A stretch of 62,860 bases of DNA, filler included, from Sluysia triapertura (taxonomy: Eukaryota), in assembly GCA_046118255.1 (NCBI GenBank). It is 5 parts of 5 records of this genome, joined end to end, with 100 filler letters (N's around TTAATTAATTAA, not from the genome) between each part and the next. Parts side by side here need not be neighbours in the genome. Positions count along the whole stretch, not along the records: positions 12,911 to 25,379 come from JBJNIA010105874.1; 4 more parts are not named here. One strand, 5' to 3'. Positions 12,911-51,860 of the stretch are shown here, piece by piece (the first letter of the stretch is position 1; each line of letters begins with the position of its first letter). The position numbers were made by a program, and so were the translations under genes. Under the pieces are notes generated by a model that had not been told where the DNA came from, ran no database searches, and saw only the letters and a list, made by a program, of their open reading frames with translations.

Positions 12911-13921
12911 CAAGTCAATCTCAGGCCTTCATAAGGTCTCAAACCCTTATATAGGTCTTTGGAACCCTAAGATATTCTTTAACTGTTTAAATTATTATAA
13001 ATATTTTCTCTTTCATGATTCTTATTTCAACAATGTTTATAATACTTCATCTATCACTTCTCATAGAATTCATCCGTAATCCTATATGCCACTCACCCGC
13101 CCCCCCAATCCAAAGTTGGACGATCCCAACATTTGCATTCTATTTCTTTAATGATTAAAAAATATTATTATTTATTATCATTAAAAAAATTTATTTAATT
13201 TTGAAGCGATATATCAACATTATACTTTTAAGTAAAGTTTTCAAAATCTACTATCTTTTAGCAATGTTAATATTAAAAGTTATCGTATTATCCATTATTA
13301 ATTTACAAGTAAATGAAGGAACTCTTAAGTCATAAATTGAAAAATGATACATTTTCCAATTAAAACAAATATGAGCAATTTTAACGCAAAGCGTAAAAAG
13401 GAAAATGTTGAATCTTTGAAATTAACAGTAACAATAAAACAATATCAATTTAATTTACTTAAATAAAATCTCAAATATATGAAATAAAAATTATCACAAA
13501 TTTTCTTATTTTAATAATGATACTTATTTAACCCAAAATTACATTCTTAATTCAAATTAATAACAATAAGTTAATAATATAATAATTACAAAATCAAATA
13601 AGTCGTTATTATAAGTTTATGAGTGAACAATAGTACAACTAAAGTGAATGAAAAATAAGTAAATTTCAAAGTTAACAATAATATCGCGATTTATCTATGA
13701 AATACAAAATTATAATTCTGAAGGTTAATTTGCCTAATAATAATATATTATTATTATTTAAAATTAGTCACGAAGTAATTAAACTTAAGGTCACTTAGTG
13801 ATCTGTTAAGTTTACGTTAAATTCAATCTAGAAACTATCAAAATAGGTTAGGTAGTATGTATCTTCAATGATAGTTCAAATAATATCTTCAAATCAATAC
13901 ATAAATATTTAATTTAAAATG

Positions 13922-14272
13922 ATATTTTAAGTCAGACTTTTTACGATCTACCATATAATGCAAAAACTCAGATTTTAAGTTAGTCGTTTACGGTCTAACC
14001 AAATAGTTATGTATTTTAGAAATTTAAGCTAGCCTTATTACGGTCTAGGAGGAAAAAGCAATGATTGTATTTACTCACTATAAAAGAAGTGTATTACTAG
14101 ACAATTTAAGATTTCACAAAATTCACAAATATAATATGAATAATCAATTTACCACTTAAACCGAAATAATCTGGTGTATAGATTTTAGATTTAGATTAAC
14201 TTAGCCATTTACCGTCCAAGTGAATGAATTGATTTAATGTGAGTATATTTTATATTCACCCAGTTACGGTGA
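13922..14272 (+). repeat. Hairpin-unit array with ~49-nt period
   Basis: Units CAGACTTTTTACGATCT (~13933), TAGTCGTTTACGGTCT (~13981), TAGCCTTATTACGGTCT (~14030), each preceded by ATTT(T)AAG; further units at ~14202 and TCACC-CAGTTAC-GGTGA at ~14256. Confidence 0.7.
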
Positions 14273-14656
14273 GAATGACAAAACTTGTACAAAAATATCT
14301 TACTTTCATTGACAAACTTGTCGATGTGTTGATTATTTCAAATTGTGTGTATAACTACTGAAAATCCAGTATTTAGATACTTACTTTCTTTTCATTAATT
14401 AATTTAAACAAAAAATATAAAAATATAATTTTAATCAAAATAACATTTTAATTTATTTAATTTAGTGATATTATTTACATATTAATTTAATAGTTTATAA
14501 TTTCATTTAGTTTATTTAATTTATTTATTTTCATTTATTTAATCTATCAATTCTGAAATTCTTTAATAATTAATATAGAGATTATTTAATTATAATAATT
14601 AATAATAATTAAAAAATTAAAAATAACACAAAACATAAAACAGCAAATTTAAATAA

Positions 14657-15420
14657 TCATTTTAAGCCTCTATATCTTTCAGTCTCAATACTACTTCCCC
14701 CACCGGGAAGATTTGTCCACGAATCATTAAAGTCCAAATCGACGTTGTCATCTTCTAGAAAATACGGTGGTGGAGAATCTGTTAATGTGCCGCACGATAT
14801 TCGTTTCCGTTGTCGTATTGTAGGCTGGTATTCCAACAGGGAGAATCTATAAAGGGAAACTCCCATTCGGAGTCGTAGCGGCTGGGCTTAATTTTTGGGA
14901 TTGGCGTAGAGTGTTTTCTTTTGGGAAGTTTTGGAGTGGTAAACTCGAATGATGATGATGATTCCGAACTGTCATGAGTGTTATCAGTTGATGATGTCGA
15001 TTGTTGATTGTCAGATACGCGTTTTCGTGCTGGAAACGATATTGTAAACCACTGTGCTTGAATTTGTTACAACAATGACTTGAACGTAATGACGTTAATA
15101 GATTGTATACTCTATGTTTGTGTTCGTCTACTTCTTGTTTAGCTGCAATTCATTTGGTTGATGTCGTGGTAATACGGGCAGGATGTGCCGAATTTTATGC
15201 ATAATCCAAATGAATCCAACTGTGATGGACATTGTCCTATACATTTTTGGTTGGATAAGATAACGTTAGTACCAGACATAAAATGAAAATGATCTTTAAT
15301 GTGTGCTTGAAAACATATAGCATTATTCAACAATGATAAAATCAACTCGATATGTCTTTCCTTTAATGTTGTAGGCGATATAGTTGCGAAGCGTCTCTTT
15401 ATAATCTGTCTGCTCTTAAA
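14657..15420 (-). pseudogene. CCCH zinc-finger protein remnant (C-x9-C-x6-C-x3-H), paralog of 19236-19553
   Basis: CPSQLDSFGLCIKFGTSCPYYHDINQ...HKHRVYNLLTSL versus CSHTAMQNGKCIRFGETCKYFHSINE...HYSRIDYLLADL; internal stops and frameshifts; Ser/Pro-rich tail. Confidence 0.7.
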
Positions 15421-16029
15421 GTCTTCTAACTATGTAACATTAGATTTTGACGTTCCTTGAATATTTTGTTCTGATTTGAATATTAAGCGCTTACATAAAA
15501 TCATATGCCATATAGGATTAGATGATAAAAATGATACAACAGGATTAACAACAGCTTTCTGAATAATTCCATATCAGCACGCTTGAGATGCACTTGTGCT
15601 ATCGTGTTGATTAGGGCCACATTTATGTTGTTTTGTGATTAGAAATACTTCTCTATTTCATCATCTTTGACGCCAGTACCGACGCCAGATAAGGGGAAGA
15701 AAAAATTTTTCCTTGTTTTTTTACCATTTTCCCACTGAGCTATCAGCTCCGTCTAACAATTTTATTTTATTATACGCAATATTTATACATGGCACTTTAG
15801 GCCTTTACCACAACACTATTATTTCGGGTAATTTGACGAACCCCCTATGTGGAAGTGATATCCACAGATTATCGTCAATTCTGAACAATGCGTTGGCTTT
15901 GGCTTTAACTTATTATTCGTAAACAATATTCTGGTTACATGTTCTAAATACGTTTATGATTCGCCATATAATACAAGTAATTGTGTTTCCGATCTTAATT
16001 GTACTTCTACCTTATTACATTTATAAGTA

Positions 16030-16594
16030 CAGTGGTACCTCGGTTTATGAATTTAATCCGTTTCAAGATTGTGTTCGTAAACCGACATGTTCGTTAACCG
16101 GAACATCAATTACAACAGAAATTGTATGGAAATGCAATTAAGTCGTTCCAATATATAATTTTTTAAAATTTAGCGTTCGCAAACCGAAGTTTATTATTTT
16201 TAAATTATTTTTAATTTAATGTTTAAAAAATATCGTAATGTTACATATTTTTATAAAACATAGGTTTTAAAAAGAAACAGTTTTATTTAGGTCAAAACAA
16301 TTTACTGCTGGAAAGGGCACTTTTCTTCAACATTAATTTCATCAGTGATTTTTCTTTGATTCTTACGTTCTTTTTCTTCTGAGATTTTCGTCAAAATGTA
16401 TCGAGAATAGTCAGTATTTTTCTTCTTTTTAGAGTCTCTTGAAAATATGATATTGCATTATCATTCATAATATTAATTTCTCGGTTTGCATCAAATTTGT
16501 TTTGGTGATACTTTTCAACGAATTTAAGTACTTATTGCAAATATCTTTGATGGTAGCACTTGTGATATATTCTTCTTGTTCAGCCTCAAATAAC
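16030..16594 (-). mobile_element. Tigger/pogo DNA transposon 3' end (TIR plus transposase C-terminus)
   Basis: TA + CAGTGGTACCTCGGTTT TIR at 16030; minus-strand ITSATIKDICNK..FVEKYHQNKFDANREINIMNDNAISYFQETLKRRK..LDTF matches the Tigger transposase tail. Confidence 0.85.
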
Positions 16595-17069
16595 ATCTGA
16601 CTATGTAATTTCCTTGAGCAACTACATTGTGATAAATTTTACTTTCAATAGATCCTTTTTTAAATGTTCCATCGAAATGTATATTGCTTAATGTTCTAAT
16701 ATTATAAATTATTTTTTCATTATTCCTTATTCTTAATTTGTCACCTTTATTTAAACCTATATAACCTGTTTCAAATGCGTCTCTGTAATTATTTGGTAGT
16801 ATTTTAAAAGGTTTTGATACTTTCGATAGGTGTATTATTGAGAGTGACTGTAGTGTTGATCTTCTAGCTGTACATTCCCTTACTAAGGTAGTTACTGAGT
16901 TTCCTTCCTGATTGACATTTAGGACTTTTATATCTCTTATTTTGACTCTATTTCACCAGGATTCCGGAAAATCTTCGGTTTCTAACAGTGTTTTACTGCA
17001 GTCAAAAGCTTTTATTCCATTAGTTTTATTTATTCCGAACATAGCTAATAGTATCATTAGAAAAAGCAT
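16595..17069 (-). pseudogene. Envelope glycoprotein N-terminus of chuvirus-G / Anakin-env type (class III fusogen-like), truncated at the Tigger remnant
   Basis: Signal-like MLFLMILLAMFGINKTNG, then IKAFDCS ... VNQ..TLVRECTARR ... NNYRDAFETG ... DGTFKKG...IYHNVVAQG, following the AYDC / VxxC / CxxxxxTG / GxCxG / WxNVVVQ order of chuvirus-like glycoproteins; one TGA and several putative Cys losses. Confidence 0.7.
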
Positions 17070-17597
17070 GCTATTAGTGGAATTACTTAATCTAGGTATA
17101 ATATTGTTTAACATATTATTGTTGTTAAATAAATTTAATAAAATATCAAATGGTTCATTTTGATTATTCTTTTCCTTAATTATATTTTTCCAGCCTACCT
17201 GTTCGTCGATCCAAAGTTTGAGTTTCTTTTCGATAAATTCTATAACCTTATCTATTTTCTATATAGTTAGTGACTTTGCTTGGTCGCATTAAAGTATAAT
17301 GTACGCTAAAATTATTTTAATCTTCTCATTACTTAAACCTGTATTAATCCGCTTGTTATTATTAATATATAGTGTCCATTGTCAATGTAATCACTAATGT
17401 ACTTAATTTTCTATTTGCTTCATTATTCTTATAAAAGATGATTTATAGTCTTTCATTTAAGAAATATTTTCTTATATTTGTCGAAATCCGTAAATTTATT
17501 GGACAGTAACGTATAACTATATTTTTTTTGTATCTATTATATTTTTATTATTCAAATCTTCACAAATTATTTTAATAGTCAATGATATTTGGCGTTA

Positions 17598-18215
17598 TTA
17601 TTTTATTTCATTATATTCACTTTTTCTTGGTCGGCCAGGGCCTCTTTTTATAGTGTTTGTTTCCTTATCGCTAGTTTCGATATGAGGATTGTTATTCAAA
17701 TCATTTATGTATTTTGGTTTTTCAATTATATTTTCATCATTAAATTCAATATCATTTTCCGTTAATTGTCTCACATAAGAATGCGGAGTCTTATCTAAGT
17801 CAATATCATTAAATATATTCGTAGTAACAATAAGTTTATTCTGTACTGCATAAGTGATAAAAACTTTTATTATTTCATCATGGTTTCCCAACGGATGACC
17901 TTAATCATTTAAGAACTCGTCCGAGTCTAACTTTCTATAATGATAATATAATTGTACATTTGTTACTGAAATATCATTTGATTTAATTATGTCAATAATT
18001 TTTTTTATTAATGTAGTCACTGGTAATTCCGTGAAAACATTAATCGATTCATTAATTAGTATGGGTTCTTCGGACCTTTCCATTTCTTCACTTGTTTTTA
18101 ATAACATTCTAGCTTTTGTTTTATAAGAACTGTTCTCATGGCTTAGAATTACTATATTTGATTTAATAATTTGTCCATCAATCCAAGTCATATCTGAGGT
18201 GAGTAAATTATCCAT
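17598..18215 (-). pseudogene. ~205-codon frame with one internal TAA: ubiquitin-like segment and C-terminal AT-hook
   Basis: ORFs 17901-18215 and 17598-17891 are in the same frame; NVFTELPVTTLIKKI..NVQLYYHYRKLDSDEFLND*G resembles a Ubl beta-grasp; KRGPGRPRK is an AT-hook. Confidence 0.5.
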
Positions 18216-18399
18216 ATATTAATCTTGTTTTCTCTTTGATCTATTTCTTCATTCTTCGCCATTGTCGTCATCCAATTTCATTCTATGGAATTCTTGCAGT
18301 ACTCTGGTTTCTTCTTCTGTAAACTGCCTTTACTTCTTCTAGATCTATTTCCTTCATATTCTTCACCATAACTGTCATAATCATCATGATATTGTCTTT

Positions 18400-18960
18400 C
18401 ATAATCGTAATTAACTTGCATTCGACCATTTTTATCATTTTTCTCATCAAATCTTACCTGTCTTGATGGATCTTGATTATTGGTAATTAATTCGTGGTTA
18501 AAAGTATCTTATTTTAATTTCTGCAATTTCGAGCGTAGTGTCCATTCCTATTGCAATTATGACATATTACTTCTCCATCTACGTTAGTTTGAGTCTTATA
18601 GTTGTTTGTTTTATCGATATAATCGACAATTATCTCTGGATTCTTACTCTTATTTATAAATTTTTCATTATTCGCCAACTTAGTGGAGGTCTTTACTCAA
18701 ATTCGTTTGATCCGGTATTCTGAAAACTTCTTGTCTTTCCTGTTTTTTAGTTATAATCATTTCTTCTGTGTTAGAATTATTCCTTCTACAATTATTTCCT
18801 CGAAAATTACCTGTACTGTTATTATCTAAAAAAATCTTATTTTTAAATGTATCTTCTCTTAAAATATATTCTGGGCTCTTATTATTATTATTTATATAAC
18901 TTAAATTGCTTTTTCTTCAGCCCTGGATTTCTATATTGTGTTGGTTTAAGGTTGTTAGGT
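18400..18960 (-). mobile_element. Gag nucleocapsid remnant of an LTR retrotransposon/retrovirus-like element
   Basis: Perfect CX2CX4HX4C knuckle CHNCNRNGHYARNC at 18523-18564, preceded by Asn/Arg-rich low-complexity sequence. Confidence 0.8.
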
Positions 18961-19235
18961 TGTGAAATGTAATTAAACTTATCGCAATTTTAATTATTTA
19001 AAATTTAATACTATAAGTTTATTATGCCAAAAATTATTATAGTTTTTCTTTAATTTTATTTTAAAAAATAATTAAAAATTCAATAAATAACAAAAAACAT
19101 TTAAAAGCCTAAATTTATTTTTTACAACTAAACTAAAAATTTTTATCTGGGTCAATTTCCAAATATGCCATTTTTTCTTAGAACCAAATTCCTTAACTAA
19201 ATAAAACATAAAATTAAAATATCACCATTGAAATC

Positions 19236-19553
19236 TTAATGAATGTTTACTTTGATGTTATTCCGAGAAGGTCCGTCTAGTAGTGGAATTGTAGGATTGT
19301 TGATAGCTGTTTTGATTACTTTTATATTGGGAAGTGATTTAGTAAAACTATTGAGGTCTGCCAATAAGTAATCTATTCTACTGTAGTGTGAAGTGCGAAC
19401 TGCTGGATCAATTTCGAACTTTTCGAATTCATTGATTGAATGGAAATACTTGCATGTTTCACCAAATCTTATACATTTTCCATTTTGCATTGCCGTATGC
19501 GAACATAGAGCCATTTTGTGATGTACATTGAAGTTTGTAGAACTATACCCCAT
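19236..19553 (-). CDS. CCCH zinc-finger ORF (105 aa, probably a fragment)
   Basis: CSHTAMQNGKCIRFGETCKYFH; paralog near 15.2 kb. Confidence 0.6.
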   Translation of the reverse strand: MGYSSTNFNVHHKMALCSHTAMQNGKCIRFGETCKYFHSINEFEKFEIDPAVRTSHYSRIDYLLADLNSFTKSLPNIKVIKTAINNPTIPLLDGPSRNNIKVNIH

Positions 19554-19559
19554 ACCATG

Positions 19560-20075
19560 ATGATAAACATCAACATTTTATTGCTTGGTTTTGGTAATAA
19601 AATTAGTAAAACTTTCTCGATGTTTTGAGTTGATTGATAACTTATCATTTTATGTGCATCATAAATTGTTAAATATCGAATAGAATAAAAATTTCTCTAA
19701 TTCGATTCGTATGATGTAGCACCATCAAAATTCAACTAGGAGTTGCTACCACAATATCAACATCGAAAATACTAGGTTCCGTAAAGTGATTAGTCGGATC
19801 TATATTATTTTTAGATTAACTCCTTCAATTGACTTCATTGAATTACCACATTCTTGTATTATCAATTGGATTGTAAAAATCAAAATCTTTATTTACATAA
19901 ATGGTTGACTTTTGTCTAACCGCATTGTATAACTTGAATATGATAAGCTCCAGTTTCAGATAAATCAATAATATCTTTACGTTTAATCATAATTGGTGTA
20001 GCATGTTGTTGAAGTTGACTCGATTTTAACCATTTTACTTTAATAATATTGTCTAAAAGATCATATACTTTAGTT
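19560..20075 (-). pseudogene. DEAD-box helicase RecA1 remnant, DDX6/eIF4A-like
   Basis: Ordered motifs: LLDNIIKVKWLKSSQLQQHATPI (Q motif), KDIIDLSETG-AY (motif I, GKT deleted), DIVVATP (Ib), IRYLTIYDAHKMI (degenerate motif II), IEKVLLILLPK..MLMF (before motif III); frameshifted, no introns evident. Confidence 0.75.
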
Positions 20076-20269
20076 ATGACTGCTATGATTGTGTAACCAA
20101 AAATTTAAAGTTATGTTTTTTCTTATTTTTAACTAAAACCAAATTTTTACTGCAATTTATGATTAATTTTTACTTTTTTGTCTCGTTCTAACTTAAAAGA
20201 CACCTACTTAGCAAAATAGTTAGGATCTCGAGATGAGTTAGGCTATTAGATACAATTTATGTCACTAAT

Positions 20270-20722
20270 TGATGACGGTCTAATTAGACTTATTCAACAG
20301 AAAATAATATGTCTTGTTAGTTTAACTGCTCTACTTCTTGGTAATCGGTTAGAGGAGATATCGGAACTATTAGTTCAAGATAGTTTAACTTAAAAACAGC
20401 CTTATCCTGGTCTGTTAAACTGTACAGGAAATTTGTATATTGAAACAGCCTTCTTACGGTCTATCAATAATTTATCAGATTTTATACGTTAAGACAGCCT
20501 TTTTGCGGTCTGATTAAATTGTCGAGAATTTTAAATAGAAAAAACGAAGTAGTTCTACTACCAAAAGGTTTATTCAGAAAATCAATCTTACAAAAACTAA
20601 AATAAACTTTACAATGAAGACAATATTATAATAATGATAAGATTTTAAATATTAAGATATCAATAATATCGTAGACCATAATGATTTTGACTGGAGTTTA
20701 AATCAGCCTTTTTACTGTCTAA
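20270..20722 (+). repeat. Hairpin-unit array with exact 49-nt period
   Basis: CAGCC-N7-GGTCT units at 20397, 20446 and 20495, with a further degenerate unit at ~20703; flanks are loosely collinear with 14170-14410. Confidence 0.8.
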
Positions 20723-21379
20723 CAATAATCTAAAGATTTTACGTAAGATTTTAGTCCTAGGACATGATGAAACTTATATATAAAAAATTACTTTTTCATG
20801 GATATTATTGTAATTGTTTTTGTTGTATTTCTTGTGGAGATCCAAATTTCCAAATTTTTCTCGACTTCTATGTCATTATATATCTTATCACTTTCTGTTG
20901 TGTGTTTTAGAATTTTTTGCCAATACTTATATACGTCTGTTATCCATATTGTTTATGATTTTTATTTATTACTTTAATTAAACAAAAACATTTTTTTTGA
21001 TTTGAGTAAACAAATTTATTTTAACAATTTCATTTTTAATATTTTTATTTAATATTTTATAGTTTTTATAATATTTAGAATTAGTATTTACAACAATATC
21101 AAAATGATTATAAAATATAATAAACGATTTAATTAATTTATAAAAAAATAATAATTAAATTCAAAATATTAGTCGTCAAAATCAAAATAATAACCAATTT
21201 GTCAAAATTAGTAAATTAAATCACACATGGTTTATCACAAAAATCATTTTGATATCCGATGTCCAACAGTTTATTACATTAAATTTTTATTGGCACCAAT
21301 TTTTTTGTTCTTCATTCCACTCATTTTTTGCTCACTGTCACTGCCCAATAACAAATCTGTATACACACAGCTTGACAAT

Positions 21380-21730
21380 CATATGCTGATTGGACGTCCA
21401 ATCAGATAAAATTGGTTTTTTAACTAATATCTGTCATCGGTATTAATTGATGTAAACATAACTCTTATGTGTAGCTGTGCCGTTAGGAATGATTGATTTT
21501 AGTCTATCCTAACGCTGTTAGTAGTGACAGTTAATGTAGTTGGAGACAACTACATTGGTTTTATGTTATTAATTTTACACTAATAATAATAGTACAAATA
21601 ATAATAATCTGTAATAATAAAATGATAATAATAATAATATACCAAAATTGAAAACATAAATCTTTTAATTTTCAAACAAGATCTTTCTTTTATTGTAACT
21701 TCTTTTCTGGACATAAATCTAACTATAATT
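21380..21730 (-). repeat. Structured dispersed repeat, copy C (no RUN coding part seen)
   Basis: 20-bp perfect palindrome CTGATTGGACGTCCAATCAG 21386-21405; nested stems 21431-21530; 10-bp stem 21533-21556; (TAA)-rich tract and AT-rich block as in copies A and B. Confidence 0.65.
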
Positions 21731-23149
21731 CTTTTGAAATTGATTAAAATTAAATTAAGATGAAATTTTCTGGTTCTAATTTTGTTAGGCAAAGAATTAA
21801 ATGTTTCAAATGAATTTTAAATTTAAATGAAGGCTTATGTCTAACAACTTACTCACTTAATATTTATTCACGTTTGTCCCAATTCGGGTGCTAAATTTTG
21901 CTGAAGTTTTTCTTTCAAAATAAATTTAACTTTAATTTTTTAATTCAATCCGTCTGTATTGACGTACCTACAGAAATTTATAATCTCCTTATGTAAGGAC
22001 CTATTAATCCTTAACTTACAAAGCTCTTTACTTAAAAAACGAATTTTTATTAATACACAGTTGTAGTTTATAATTTACAAAAATATTCCAAATGTTGATG
22101 ATGCTTGTAATAATAACAATAATAATAACAAAGTTAATGATAACAATAAATACAGTTTTTGAGGCTTTATTTTTTATTAATCAAATTTTAAAAAATGATT
22201 TTATAATTGGTTTTAAGACCAACTTTTAAAAATTATAATTTACGTACGATTTTGTAACTCATACAAAAAATAGGATATCTTACATAAATTAACTTGCTAC
22301 TTGAATATAAGAAACGAATTATAGTTTTGGCTTTATCAATAATATTGTTCTTTACATTTTCTTTTTATTGATCTGGTATAATGGATTTAACGTCTTGACG
22401 ATCAAAAGACGAAGAATTTTCTTTCTTTGAGTAATGGTTAAAAATCTTTTAGGTTTTAGTTGATAATAAAAATCCATTATTAAAAATAAAGATCCATTGG
22501 TTTTGTTCATTATTAATTGAAAATCCATTATTACTTTATTGATAAAATAAATCCATTAATATTTCAGTATTTCATTAAAATGCATTATTAAAAATTATTT
22601 AAAAATCCATTATTTGTTATTTTACTTAATAAAAATTTTATTTTATTTAGTTAATTTTAATTAAAAAAATTATTTAATTAATTTTATTTTCCATATTTAT
22701 GTACCTTTAATCCTTTAACAACTTTAATTTTCTTGTAATGACTTACTGGAATTATTGTTATTCTATTAACGTCTTACCTTCAATTAATATTTTCAGGAAA
22801 TGTTTTAACCTCAATTCCAATTTGTGAAAATTTAGTAATTTATTTCCCTTCTTATTAGAACAACCCTAGAAAACCAATATAAACAATCTATTTAAAAGAA
22901 TTTTCGTTTAACTTTTATTCAAATTATGTAATCTCTTAATTCTCAATTTCTTTGGTAGTTCGTTTTCTAACCTTTCTTTTAATTAAATATTTTCAAATAG
23001 CTTATTATTATTCATTATTATTTTTTTCTAATTATTATTATTATTATTTTATATTATTATTAATTATTATCTATTCTTCATTTCAGATCTGATGATGGTG
23101 ATTTTATACGTTGCATAATCCTAACATATAACATATCGTTTCCATAATT

Positions 23150-23650
23150 CAGACTTATATTTCCTTGGTGACATACTTGCTACTACAAATACAATCAGAA
23201 CTCCTGTGACAAAAAAATGCAACCAAAAATCCAAACATCAATATCCTTAATATAATCTGCACGTGGAAAATTTGCGGAAATACCTGTTGCTTGAGTTAAA
23301 ATCCCTAATAAAGTCGATGCAGCTTCATTAATAATCAGAAATTTAACCAACTTATCGTAATAGTTTAAACATTAAGAATGTAAGTACTTCCTAAATAACT
23401 TCTTAGGTGTCTTTGTAAAAAGAATGTAGCTTTAATACGTGAAAAATCATCCGTACTTACATATTTTCAATCGATGGCTGATTAAATTCAGGTATTTCTA
23501 ATTTTTTAGGAATTTTAATTGGCTTATCTCCGACGAAATTTGAATCGATCCAATGCACAACCAAAAATACCAATATCTATGTGACACTCCCAATCCATTG
23601 AAAACGTTCGAAGTTTCATGTGACATGAAAAACGCAAGTAACTAATCGTA
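23150..23650 (-). pseudogene. Cys-loop ligand-gated anion channel subunit (GluCl/GlyR/GABA-A-like) pseudogene
   Basis: FSCHMKLRTFSMD..ECHIDIG (Cys loop), LEIPEF, FSRIKATFFLQRHLRSYLGSTYI, ISWLNF*, LLGILTQATGISANFPRADYIKDIDVWIFGCIF (M2-M3); deletions and frameshifts. Confidence 0.9.
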
Positions 23651-25173
23651 ACAGTAAAAATATTGTTATGCTAAAGATAATTACTAAAGATAAGTCCTCA
23701 ATCACAAAGTTTATCATAAATATGTTAAGGTAGCTCTTTTAATGGAAATAAATATTCAAAATCTTCTTTCTTGTCTAGCTACCTTGTTCTGATTTTATTA
23801 CAAAAATGCGATATTTATATAGTAGTTTGGTAATTAAAAATTGGAAAATAAAAATAATTATTTGATATAATTATTCAATCCTTTTAGCCACTCATAAGCT
23901 GACCAATTTTAATACTCGGCTTCCAATTTATTGTCTTCTGACATTACCCAAAGATAATGTGATGAACTTAATCAAAATTTAATATCATTATCATACTAAT
24001 ATTTTTTTATTAATATAATGTATCAACTTAAATTAGACAAAACTAATCAAATACAAAATTTCTTTTCTATAAAAAGCTTCTTACACAATACGTCATAAAT
24101 TTAATCCTAGATTATAAAACTAATTAAAATAACTAATTTTTATTGTAAATATGTAATATTTGTATAATATTAAAATGCCGTAATATATAATGTATAATAT
24201 TTTAAGAATTCATGGAATGTAATTTATGTAATTAAATAAGAAATATATGCAAGAAATAGTTCTTATAAAAATAGTTCTTATAATTATTGTTATTTAATTT
24301 TTATTATTAGATTTATTTCCTAACAATTATTGCAGTATTATCAAAAGTACTATTAAAACTTCACAAAAGTATTATTATTGATGAATAATAAAGTCAATGA
24401 GATTTATTTAAATTTCATTATAAAATGCATATCATTTTAAACCACTTTCAACCATTTCAAACAAAATTTTATTCAAGACGTAAGTATGGGCTTCAAGAAT
24501 TTTTATGAAGACGTTCACTGCCTTAAAAAATGCGAAATTTTTTTCTTGTTTCAAGTAGTAATAAGTGTCTCTATTACTCATTAAAAAACGTTATTGAAAA
24601 ATCGTTAGCGACTATTCAATTACAATCATTTTGGAATAATACTTAACGGATCAATAATCACAGGCCAATTTTGAATATCAACATTTATTTAATAGAGTAA
24701 TCGTTAGTTGAATATTTTTGTAAGAAAGAATTTTAAAGGAAAATAAACTAAAATGTACTTAAAATATTTTAATAATATTTAATTAGTAATATTTACATTA
24801 TTACATATTTAACAGTAATTAATCTCAAAATTAGAACAATTATCGACTAAAGATAATTTTAATAAACTAATTAGAAAGTTTTTATTATACTTAACGTAAA
24901 TTAACACTGTTGGTCGATAAACTCAAATTCTTATAAAAACTTTTTTACGTATTATCGAATTCATATTCGTATGTATCATTTGTTTTTATTATTATTAATA
25001 AATTTTTAACATATTTATAAATTTGATTAATTAGTTAAAAAGGAAAAAAGATTACAACTTTAATTTTGAATAAGTATTTTTAAAACCCTTCTTGCAGTTC
25101 AATAAATTATATAGCTTTAAAGAAGTGTGAAATATATACAACATATAATAACAAAAAGTGTTTTCACTTATAA

Positions 25174-25379
25174 CAGGGGTGCGCAAATACTTTAAAGTGC
25201 GGGCCAAAATGAAATTTTTAAAATGTCTCCCGGGCCGGAGGACTATACCGCGTATGCTTTGCACAAGCGGATGTTTTGGATGGAGTTTTTTCCCTGCCCA
25301 ATTTTTTTTCGACAAAAACACTAAGTATCATTTCAATTTGAATAAAATATGTCACGTAATTTTTAAAGAAATATTATTA
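25174..25379. mobile_element. hAT (Charlie-like) transposon end running into the contig break
   Basis: CAGGGGTGCGCAAA terminus followed by GC-rich GCGGGCC/CGGGCCG subterminal motifs. Confidence 0.65.
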
Positions 25380-28400: not shown

Positions 28401-28553
28401 TGACATGCATCTTATTTCTGCGTGCCATATCATAATAAATTTTCGATTCAGAGTCTTTCTTTTTACAGAGATTTGAAATTAAACAATTCTTAATAAAGTT
28501 TACAACTTTGACAGAACCATGACGCACATTGTTCAATTCCATAGACATAAAAG

Positions 28554-29890
28554 TGTAAAGGTGTAAATATTATGATCTTATTTTTTATATTTACAAAAAT
28601 TGTAAAAATTATAAGAATTATAAAAATTATTAACATTTAAAATATTATTATTTAAATTATACTAAAATTAAAATTATTATTATTACAAATTAAAAAAATA
28701 ACTAAAAAGAAACTTCTCGAAAGAAGTTTATTTGATTAAATAAAAATTGTAAAAATGTCTTTATCTGTATATAAAGACGTAAGCAAATTAAGAAATCTCC
28801 ATAATTAAAAATAAATAAGTCAGTCAATTCATCACAAAGAAACAACACTACGTCATTTGAGTACAATTCAATTCGGTCATCATCGGTAAAAAGACAACAT
28901 TTCAACGTTCATACATCAAATTCTTTTCGAGGGTTCCAGCAATTTTCAAATTTACGCTTCAGTCAACGATATTGTGTCCCGCGTCTACCATTAGAGGGAA
29001 CAATTTTCCATTTTCAAGAAATCAATTCGTTAGAAAGGAAGGACAATCGGAGTTTACCGGCATTTATTATTAATTAATCCGTAAGTTTGTCCTAAATAGA
29101 TTGTAAACTCACTACGAGCTAAAATGTACACTTAAACTATTATTTTTCAAGGTTGATCATTAAGGCCAATCACAAAATCAAACAAAAATATAAATTCACT
29201 TCCTTTTAGTTGGCCCTTAAGGTCAATTATAAAATAATTATTATAAGGTAGAGTCTAACGGCTAGACATTTATTATAATTTAACTGTTATCTTATAATTT
29301 TATTGATAATTAGTGTTATTGATAATCATATTTGTCGAATTTTACTAATTTATAATAATTTTATCTTATTTTTGTGTAATAAAAATATTAGAAGATTTTC
29401 GAGTTCCTTTTATTATAATTGCCTTAATATTAACGTGTAACCTATATTATTCACTCTCCGAATAATTCATAATTAATGTATATTTTAATCGCAAATACGT
29501 TCATTTCAATATTGTTTCATTAAATTTTAATAAGAACTAGAAAATTCTAACGGTTATTATATTATGATTTGGAGATATAAAAAATATTTTATACCTCATT
29601 TTATACCATCATTCTTTATTTGATTTTTATAATAATTTAGACATTCCATAAGCTAGCGTTCGTCTTAATTAGTTTTTAAGTTATTTATTGTTAATTGACA
29701 TAAACGACGAATTTGCCCATTATTGTTAAGTTCAGGCAAAGAATACTTTTATGCGATTAATTTTTGATAATTGTTTTCACGTAATTTTTAGGGTACACCA
29801 TTAGTAAGTCGTATACTGTAAACAGACTCAGAATAATAATAATTTATTTTGCTATAGGTTGCGTTTTTAGATTAAGAAAACACCCAGTAG
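28554..29890 (-). mobile_element. LTR-like dispersed repeat, copy 2
   Basis: Reverse complement of 10880-12222; begins TGTAAAGGTGTA on the + strand. Confidence 0.7.
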
Positions 29891-30595
29891 ATTTCTTGTT
29901 ATTATTTTAAATTAAGAACGTAATTTTGAATAAACATAATTATCAAAATAAGAAAATTTGTGATATTATTTAGGTCTTTATTTAAGTAACGTAAATTAAT
30001 ATTGGATTATTGTTATTATTGATTTAAGATGCAACATTAACAAAATTAACCAAATTCAGAGCTTGATAGTCGCTATTCAGTCTTAAGAACAGCAGTTATT
30101 TTGGTAAAAACATAAAATTAGAAAAACTTGTTAATTAAAAAATTACTTTATTATTCATTCTAAGTTTGACGAAAAAACGCGGTAACGATTTTAATCCTCT
30201 ATGGGTCAAATTTTTTTACTTAAATATAAAAAAATTATTTATTTTTATTTACTTTGACATTTCAGGTTGATATTTCAGGTTGACATTTCAGAGATATTAT
30301 ATAATAAAGACGTATACTTTTTCTTCTGAAAAAACTAAACTATTTGTTAAAATGTGGATATATTAGTTTGTGACCTTAAAGTGTCACAGGCCCATGGAGG
30401 GTAATTAAAAACAAAATTAATTGTAACTACATTTAAGTGATGGTTTAATGTGTGATTAAATCAGGGTTTCAACCAAACGCTTCGTGTTGAGCCCGAGGAC
30501 TGTTCATTTTCTAAACATGATTTTATTCACTATTTTCCTTTTGTAACGTGATTTCAAAAATTATTTCATTAAGGTTTCATGAGGAAACGTTGATT

Positions 30596-33500
30596 GTGTT
30601 GGGTAAAAGGCCTAAAGTTCCATGTATAAATATGGTAGTAACATTGACTATAATAAAATAAAATTGCTAGTTGGCAGACACCAACGCAATAGGCACAAAA
30701 TCTCTGGTGCGAAAATACTTCTTAAATGTTCGTGCTTCCTCGTCTTTGAGGATCATTCAAACCTTAACCAGCACCTTCTTACCCACAACTCTTCTAATAA
30801 TCTGCCCACTAAAACGACCACCAACTTGCATTCAACACATAAATCTGATTGACTAACCCTTGGCGCAATCATGACTTTCTTTAACGCATACATCATTGAT
30901 GTTGATTCTGTTGCGGTGGACTGTATTACTGCCAATTTTGCTATGTTCAATGGCGAAAAGGCCTTTCTGAACAATTTTCCCTTCTCAGAATGTTCAGCTT
31001 GGTTCCACTTATACTGAATCCTTAATATCGAATCCCACTGGATCCTTGTCATCTTTAATAAACAACAGAATTTCTTCTGCAGTATTGACCCTATTGCGTC
31101 TTATCTATGCCACCTTCTCCTCCTGGGTGACTATTTATCTAACGTCATGATTGCGTCAATTTCTCTTCCTGTCTACCCTTCTAAACCTTCGTTTCATTAA
31201 ATTTATTACTTACCCAATAGAGGAAGATTCTACCGACTGTGGCCCCTTTATATGTGATATTGCGTTACAATATCAACGCAACCCTGATATCTTTATTTTT
31301 GTAAGCTTGATATTTGCGGTAGTAGAGAGATCCTCTGTAATGTTGTTACTCTTTCTCTGGATGAGTCGAATAAGTTTAACAAATCGAAACACCCACATCC
31401 TTCGTTACAATCTCTTTGTCTCAAATTCAGTAAGGTAACTCTCTCCCTGGATGAATCCTTCACTGAATTTTGTAGTCTCATTTATCGCTTGCATGCTCCA
31501 AAGTTTCCTAATATTATGCCTCAAATTAAATTCCAGAGTAACGAGTTTAAGATATTAATCTTAACAAGATCTTTGAAAAGAATCAGACCAAAGCCTTCCA
31601 GGTGGTAACTGGTACTGACCCTTCTCCCTCACTCCTTCTGTTTTTACTATAGTTAAGGCATTTTTCCACCATTCGATCCATCTAAGATTGGTGTGACACC
31701 TTATTTTGTGCATTTTCAACTTGTTCTTCCTTTTCTGAAGCTGAAATCTTAATAACCATGAAGTATTGTAAAAACTCTGCGCCGAGACCCAATAAAATCA
31801 CATTCGAACAAATCAAGAATGTTGATCCCACAGCGAAGTTTCTTTTAATTTTCTTCAATAAAATACTTCATACTCAAAACGTTCCTCAGACCTGGAAATC
31901 TTTTCTTACATTCCTTATAATTAAACCAAATAAATTCCATATGGTAAATGTAGTTTCTTCCTGGCGTGCTTTTGCTGTTCTGGATTCTTTGTACTGCATC
32001 TTTACAAAGATCCTCAATGATCGACTCTTATCATGGATTCATTCTTGGAACCTCATCAGTACCCATCAAGCTTCTCTTCTTCGCTCTGATGGTTGCGCTG
32101 AACATAATTTCATCCTTCATTATTTATAGGAAATTATTAAGTCTCTTAATCATATAAAACCCCACAAAATCCAACTCCACGTCATCTTTCTTGATCCGTG
32201 CCTCACCAATTAATTTGGTATAACCTGTCTTGTATGGTCTTCATCAATCCACCCTTAAGTTTATCAGAAATCAGAAATTGATTCTTCGTCGACTCAATAC
32301 AGGTGTAATAACCTATTGAAGTATCCAGTAGGAGTCAAACAAGGGTGCCCAATCTCACTGACCCTGATCGACTACTTGTTTAGGTCTTTTCCTAATTCCC
32401 TTGCCACTGCGGATGAAATAGTCCTAAGCTTCACAAATGCTTAACTGCATGGTCGAAAGGCCAAGTCAACTTAATTTTCTGTACCAACAAAAGTTTTTAC
32501 TTTAATAATCTCTCTGGAAGCGAGCTCTTCCTATACATTGATAATGTACCTATTCCGCCTATGAAAGATGGTGATAAAATCACCTACCTGGGGGTTCCTT
32601 TTGGCGGGGGTAACTTGAAAAGACAGAACCTTAACTGACTTTTGGAGGAAAACCTGCAGTTTACTGTAGACTTAGCTGTAAGAACAAGTTTCTTATATAC
32701 TGCAACTTTCTTCATTTCCGCCTTCCTTTTCACCTTCGCAACTTCAGTATTAATATCCAAACACTGAGTATCCCGCATACAAAACAATCCAAGAAACTCC
32801 CTCGAACTGTATGTTATGATGAAAAGGTTCGTCAAATATTTAAACATTTTCTGGACCATAAAACCTTTCCTCTTAATAATAATTTCTTCTTTGCGCATAA
32901 GAACCGAATCCTCCTACGATGACTATATGTGCCAAACTGTAGTCTGTGCCTTTCGACTCTTCAATAGTCATTAAGTTGAATGAATACAACTTAACAAGGT
33001 TGCTAATACCTCTGATGCCTTGATGTGGTTAAATGGATGCAAGCTGGACAAATGGATGCACCTTCAAACCTGGTGGTCCAAAATTCGCACTGTCCTTATT
33101 AACTTACACGAAAAAACAAGATTTATATCGCTTTCCTCTGCTCTAATGATGACAATCAGATTAAATTATCCATTAGTTGCAAATCCTTAGGTGGAAGCGA
33201 AAATAGCATCATATTTAATCGGTTTCATAAGGATAAAATTGGCAAATACCTTCATAAACTGATTAATATTTCAAATAGTAATACTTGGAAATTCCTCAAA
33301 TGTTGACTGTCTCATGAAAAATCCACTCTTGATCAAACCGATCTCACTTCAACTTAGTGATTCTTTTTGGGCTTTCATACTCAAGGCACGCAACATCAAT
33401 TAAATTTCTCGCCACATAACCTTCGCCTTCAACAAATTTTAACTTGCCGCTGGTGTGGCTTTGAGAAAGAATCTATTTCTCATGTCCTTTATTTGTATCC

Positions 33501-51012: not shown

Positions 51013-51860
51013 TAAGGTTGGCCACCACACTCATCTCCTACGATGACTACATGTGCTAAAATATAGTCTGTGCCTTTCGACTCTTCAATAGTCGCACCTC
51101 TTTATCCGCACCCTTGCCATGAATGAATTGTGGAGAGTCGCTGGAGTACAACTTAATAAGGTTGCCAAAACTCTGATGCCTTGATGTGGTTAAATGGATG
51201 TCAGCTGGACAAATATGCGGAGCTCCAAAATTCGCACTGCCCTTATTAATTTACAGCGAAAATACAGGATTTCTGTCGCTTTCCTCTGCTCCAATGCTGA
51301 CAATCAGATTAAATTATCCATTAGTTGTTAATCCTTCGGTGTCAGCGAAAATAGCATCATTTTTAATAGATTTCATAAGGATAAAATTGGCAAATACCTT
51401 CATGAATTGATTAACATTTCCAATAGTAATACTTGGAAATCCCTCAAATGTCAGGGTCATTTTGTTGAATGTCTCATGAAAAGTCCACTCTCGGGCAGAC
51501 CGCACTCATTTCAACTCAGCAACTCTTGCTGGGCTTTCATGATCAATCTATTTCTTGTCCTTTGTTTGTGCCCTCACACTCGCATCGGTCAAACTGTGAG
51601 ACACAATAAACTTCTTGAATGCCTGGTTATGATTCTTTATCGTAAGGGCTCTTCGTAAAAAAGATTCTCAAACCCCGATTATTGGGGACATTCGACTCCC
51701 AGATATTCAAGCCCGGGTTACTAATTTGACACATCCTTTTCTCATTGATATTAAGTTTCCAACTGATATCTATGAGTACTTTAAATCTGCGCGTAACCTT
51801 AACTTGTCTATATATAAAGATCTGCATGGAAAATTGCAAGTGCAACTTAAGTATCAGGTG
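51013..51860 (+). mobile_element. Truncated second copy of the NeSL-like element (post-RT region plus RLE)
   Basis: High nucleotide similarity to 32910-33764; retains IGDIRLPDIQARVTNLTHPFLIDIKFP (PD..DxK). Confidence 0.92.

Follow-up and report, generated by a model that had tools for sequence, protein, structure and literature searches.

The cassette and its coding remnants

In a 62,860-nucleotide (nt) stretch of DNA from Sluysia triapertura (assembly GCA_046118255.1), referred to here as the window and composed of five contigs joined by N spacers (GC ~25%), one 12.5-kb contig (JBJNIA010105874.1, positions 12911-25379) carries a degraded cassette that probably stems from a Ty3/gypsy retroelement. 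It comprises a Gag-type zinc knuckle, a middle open reading frame (ORF) with an AT-hook, a Bcl-2-like leader, and an envelope gene (env), and it is flanked by two CCCH fingers; all parts lie on the minus strand (Table 1). Only one copy was seen, and the comparison is of this single contig.

The knuckle is a perfect CX2CX4HX4C motif (18564-18523) that matches Pfam zf-CCHC (E 3e-5) and is the sole instance in the six frames of the window, with 0.007 expected per contig (motif chance levels are from 300 Markov simulations). The knuckle is followed 1454 nt later by a hydrophobic segment (from 17069), and downstream of it AFDCS (17009), VREC (16883), and NVVAQ (16628) follow in one frame. A first-pass annotation made from the sequence alone had described this knuckle, the spacing of ~1.45 kb, the three env motifs on the same strand and contig, and a lack of protease, reverse transcriptase (RT), and integrase motifs between knuckle and env. 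All of these observations hold, and protease, YxDD, and HHCC patterns were found nowhere in the window.

One frame accommodates the middle ORF, AT-hook, leader, signal segment, and the two env blocks; the knuckle lies in another. The two long frames contain one internal stop in 207 codons and one in 245 (random expectation, 0.094 stops per codon) and are separated by 113 codons with 10 stops. Position 17622 is the last of the AT-hook GRPRK (0.013 expected), and one env homolog (P0010, see below) likewise has this motif ahead of its env signal, in frame. The middle ORF had been annotated as a ubiquitin-like/AT-hook frame, of which the AT-hook stands; the ubiquitin-like stretch is a resemblance by eye that had no match in Pfam, PDB, or Atlas.

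Both CCCH fingers have the unusual spacing C-x9-C-x6-C-x3-H, have no counterpart elsewhere in the window, and are identical at 10 of 18 residues. They match Pfam zf-CCCH_UNK below the curated cut-off (E 2.8e-4 upstream, 1.4e-3 downstream), and the first Atlas match of the upstream ORF (0.90) is a cluster in which 18% of members carry PF00642. The coding-like sequence of the downstream finger stops at 14657 in an abrupt AT-rich tract, where GC falls from 0.32-0.43 to 0.09. We rejected the two CCCH ORFs as copies of a long terminal repeat (LTR), as the finger core alone is alike and their DNA shows no similarity other than AT-rich noise.

Table 1. Features of the cassette in window coordinates, from upstream to downstream on the minus strand.
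Feature	Position	Strand	Basis or remark
Upstream open frame (113 amino acids, aa) with CCCH finger; possible accessory ORF	19236..19577	-	finger 19505-19440
Gag remnant with single CCHC knuckle	18514..18696	-	Pfam zf-CCHC, motif scan
Ubiquitin/SUMO-like stretch, by eye only	17844..18077	-	one internal stop; env frame
AT-hook RGPGRPRK	17622..17645	-	motif scan
Bcl-2-like segment (BH1-like and BH2-like)	17171..17339	-	env frame; two internal stops
Hydrophobic signal segment of env	17031..17069	-	hydropathy; aligns with hydrophobic segment of four homologs
Env ectodomain block 1	16601..17063	-	profile positions 6-177 of 639; one internal stop
Likely inserted DNA-transposon end, breaking env	16030..16320	+	TA, then terminal sequence; inner boundary approximate
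Env ectodomain block 2	15825..16028	-	profile positions 394-447, then weak 451-472 in another frame
Short dispersed repeat within env (67 nt)	15753..15819	.	76% identity to 30593-30670, another contig; blastn E 2e-9
Possible env C-terminus and membrane anchor remains, not significant	15330..15700	-	best E 0.05-0.1, three-frame search
Downstream coding-like stretch with second CCCH finger and Ser/Pro/acidic sequence	14657..15429	-	finger 15231-15166

Envelope homologs, the Bcl-2-like leader, and the position of pol

Searching 1.84 billion proteins with the env sequence (phmmer) returned three matches, P0006, P0007, and P0008, the first of which was discarded as a spurious repeat protein. P0007 and P0008 carry PF24664 (Monjiviricetes_fusion; E 7.5e-87 and 2.2e-90), the chuvirus/mononegavirus fusion family, and P0009-P0011, which also carry PF24664, were recovered with P0007 residues 425-715 as query; P0007 residues 1-330 retrieved P0007 alone. 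The homologs P0007-P0011 derive from ENA records. A profile combining the five homologs but not the window sequence matches env block 1 (17063-16601) at E 1.2e-16, with 24-36% identity to four of them, and a second block at 16028-15878 at E 2.5e-5, which tblastn also supports. The env piece annotated at 17069-16595 is thus real and ends later than had been proposed. Between the blocks, ~215 profile positions have no match over 570 nt, and a likely transposon end at 16030 takes up part of this gap. We take its terminal sequence to be pogo/Tigger-like; a second end was not found in the window.

The five homologs bear out the proposal of a chuvirus-type envelope, a link that runs through them rather than directly from the window. 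Signs of a possible class III (gB-like) fusogen are PF24664 on all five and a weak PF00606 match on P0009 only (E 0.014). The window env piece had no match among PDB sequences, a word-seeded protein search with it found nothing among 1548 candidates, and 0/34 and 0/361 candidates from viral contigs were confirmed.

The open stretch ahead of the signal segment, also noted in the first-pass annotation, is indeed in the env frame; its likeness to Bcl-2 had been overlooked. A leader profile from three homologs has its top match in the contig at this segment (4.6 bits; 0/60 shuffles reach the score). The P0007 leader matches Pfam Bcl-2 at E 1e-3, below the cut-off, and 56 of the 60 PDB matches listed for the leader profile are Bcl-xL/Bcl-2 (best natural E 0.028). 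For a predicted model of the P0008 leader, all 44 Foldseek matches listed and the best 11 VIA matches belong to the Bcl-2 family. Each of these lines of sequence and model evidence is weak and all are concordant, pointing to a putative Bcl-2-like domain. Because this domain lies 58-86 residues ahead of the predicted mature env start (in the window and two homologs), the env signal segment may double as its membrane anchor. Among metagenome contigs, 2/76 candidates were confirmed, both without env; these are presumably Bcl-xL-like host genes.

Three of the five homologs (P0008, P0009, and P0010) have two to three tandem DTG aspartyl proteases after env in the same ORF, so pol is expected downstream of env. 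RT or a YxDD motif was found in none of the five homolog ORFs, and P0010 terminates in a C2H2 finger after its two proteases. The order of env before proteases agrees with the gypsy-like rather than BEL/Pao context that had been suggested. It leaves unsupported the view that missing pol in the space from gag to env marks a satellite, as pol follows env in such elements (three of the five homologs; PMC6431247 and PMC13524379).

Upstream of the knuckle, no capsid domain was detected. Searches of the six frames of the contig and of 15 shorter pieces found no capsid, RT, RNase H, or integrase; their sensitivity is limited because one such search missed env too. An LTR or long direct repeat was likewise not found in the 12.5-kb contig, which is shorter than a Burro element (see below). 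The earlier suggestion that the cassette could form particles is unsupported because no capsid was found and env is broken. A protease-like trace at 15423-15282 (6.1 bits, reached in 3/1000 shuffles, without DTG) and the env-tail match were both not accepted, as they are weak and overlap in different frames.

A probable Burro-like retroelement and its alternatives

The arrangement resembles Burro (GYPSM1), a giant Ty3/gypsy element of planarians (Arkhipova & Yushenova 2019, PMC6431247; this and the other papers compared are represented by excerpts). The Burro polyprotein described there comprises Gag with two or three CCHC knuckles, MATH, Ubi2/SUMO-like, BCL2, env, protease, dUTPase, RT, RNase H, and integrase; its env matches mononegavirus fusion glycoproteins and is presented there as the first case of an env lying in frame between gag and pol. 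The cassette shares the order of knuckle, a BCL2-like domain directly ahead of env, and, via the homologs, a mononegavirus/chuvirus-type env in frame with upstream polyprotein domains and followed by proteases; the stretch that looks ubiquitin-like by eye lies where Burro has its Ubi2/SUMO-like domain, before BCL2. Because pol follows env in Burro-type elements, its absence between gag and env is expected.

Elements of the order GAG-ENV-POL with an ENV of the herpes simplex virus (HSV)/gB type are described from Nematoda, Bryozoa, and Platyhelminthes (Chary & Hayashi 2026, PMC13524379). The "ancient errantiviruses" Smed_errantivirus_1-6 of that study are intact, have 1-215 copies, and have coordinate spans of 14.5-18 kb. 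They likewise have env between gag and pol, and the six Schmidtea env segments are similar to ours by eye only; unlike them, the cassette is decayed. The excerpted text mentions neither Burro nor Bcl-2, and we infer that these elements can be equated with Burro.

We therefore consider the cassette likely to be the dead remains of a Burro-like Ty3/gypsy retroelement of a planarian, with internal deletions. It is judged dead because of its stops, frame changes, unmatched env stretch, and inserted repeats, and because no capsid, RT, integrase, or LTR was detected in it. Several points weigh against this assignment: the window env piece has no direct Pfam match to PF24664; there is one knuckle where Burro has two or three, with no capsid (retrotrans_gag), maybe through deletion; dUTPase, RT, RNase H, and integrase were not detected after env; and pol downstream of env is absent within the contig. 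The cassette also differs from Burro in length (~5 kb versus >30 kb) and in that MATH, BIR, ankyrin, and LTR were not detected in it, and its AT-hook and two CCCH ORFs are not listed for Burro in the excerpts of PMC6431247, although the primary Burro papers may describe them. Because capsid and pol were searched for and not found, we do not class it as an intact Burro member. Decaying Burro fragments are reported in Dugesia japonica (PMC6431247), and the cassette is likely a further fragment of this recorded kind; as found, an ordinary decayed Burro-like fragment is of little consequence.

In the ancestor, a single polyprotein would have run from Gag through accessory domains, Bcl-2, Env, and protease to the remaining pol domains. 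Env would enter the endoplasmic reticulum by way of the internal signal segment and be freed there by signal peptidase. The Bcl-2 domain would stay cytoplasmic, anchored through the cleaved signal segment in the manner of tail-anchored Bcl-2 proteins, and damp apoptosis of the host cell. Beyond the env anchor, the polypeptide with the proteases and pol would face the cytoplasm again. The present copy, having presumably lost its capsid, pol, and a large part of env, would yield no functional product. This scheme draws on the homologs and on general membrane-protein topology; what the window itself shows is the domain order and the common frame, together with stops and insertions. A signal segment serving as Bcl-2 anchor is not proposed in the excerpted literature compared, a set outside of which stand Burro's two main papers. 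Burro1 expression has been shown (PMC8532177), and a 2026 study cited in PMC13465017 (a secondary source) reports that Burro1 protects stem cells through IAP, another anti-apoptotic domain; given this reported role, the Bcl-2/env arrangement is testable in planarians.

Less likely by a wide measure, the cassette could descend from a short non-autonomous lineage derived from Burro (CCCH, knuckle, ubiquitin-like, AT-hook, Bcl-2, env, and CCCH) that obtained pol from an autonomous partner and has since decayed. It would then be a pol-less satellite with two CCCH RNA-binding ORFs at its flanks and Bcl-2 as leader of a class III envelope. The ~2.4 kb from the env remains to the contig end without pol, no minus-strand ORF of at least 60 aa at 13000-14600, the clean end of coding-like sequence at 14657 before AT-rich DNA, and the matching fingers on both flanks all fit such a lineage, as do the RT-free homolog ORFs and the P0010 terminus. 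Against these stand the single copy seen, the missing LTRs, and the lack of a capsid, hence of a particle; env itself is missing a large stretch, and with ~200 env residues lost, deletions have clearly occurred in this copy. A weak protease-like trace may also follow env, and frameshifts or contig ends may have shortened the homolog ORFs. Were such a satellite real, signal cleavage would release two products, a fusogen and an anti-apoptotic protein with a tail anchor, and the element would be moved in trans while its host cells were kept alive; recurrence of the CCCH-flanked layout without pol would make it a non-autonomous partner of Burro.

Somewhat more doubtful still is a gag-env-pol gypsy relative, likewise with a Bcl-2 leader, whose host is not a planarian but another flatworm, a bryozoan, or a nematode. 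The phyla in which GAG-ENV-POL elements are known would allow it (PMC13524379), but the nematode C1 env in that paper is by eye much less similar than the six Schmidtea rows, Bcl-2 adjoining env is described for Burro (PMC6431247), and Burro1 is called planarian-specific (PMC13465017, a secondary source).

BEL/Pao elements of mosquitoes named Anakin carry a chuvirus glycoprotein, and 250 of 263 copies are defective (Dezordi et al. 2020, PMC7642597, Table 1), so that a chuvirus-type envelope in an LTR element with many defective copies is common to both systems. It is nevertheless very improbable that the cassette is a decayed Anakin-like element, or a chance juxtaposition of unrelated fragments as the differing knuckle and env frames might suggest: a single frame runs from the middle ORF through leader and signal to the two env blocks, homologs show the AT-hook as well as the Bcl-2-like leader in fusion with env, and the homolog proteases follow env, whereas BEL/Pao envelope genes sit downstream of the polyprotein (PMC7642597). 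Anakin has a BEL/Pao pol, and no Bcl-2 leader is described for it in the excerpts; its env comes after a protease-RT-RNase H-integrase polyprotein, and no pol lies between our knuckle and env. Troyka was rejected, having another knuckle spacing and no env (excerpts of PMC12440569).

Other features of the window

No Rfam families or tRNAs were found within the window. The longest open frame of the window (53496-53981, minus strand, 161 aa) and a 147-aa frame at 31686-32129 (plus strand) have no Pfam match; the latter looks like part of the RT of a non-LTR retrotransposon. Dispersed repeat families (blastn, 75-81% identity) are common to different contigs: 10868-12230 matches 28546-29905, 32911-33764 matches 51035-51859, and 13404-13569 matches 29893-30038.
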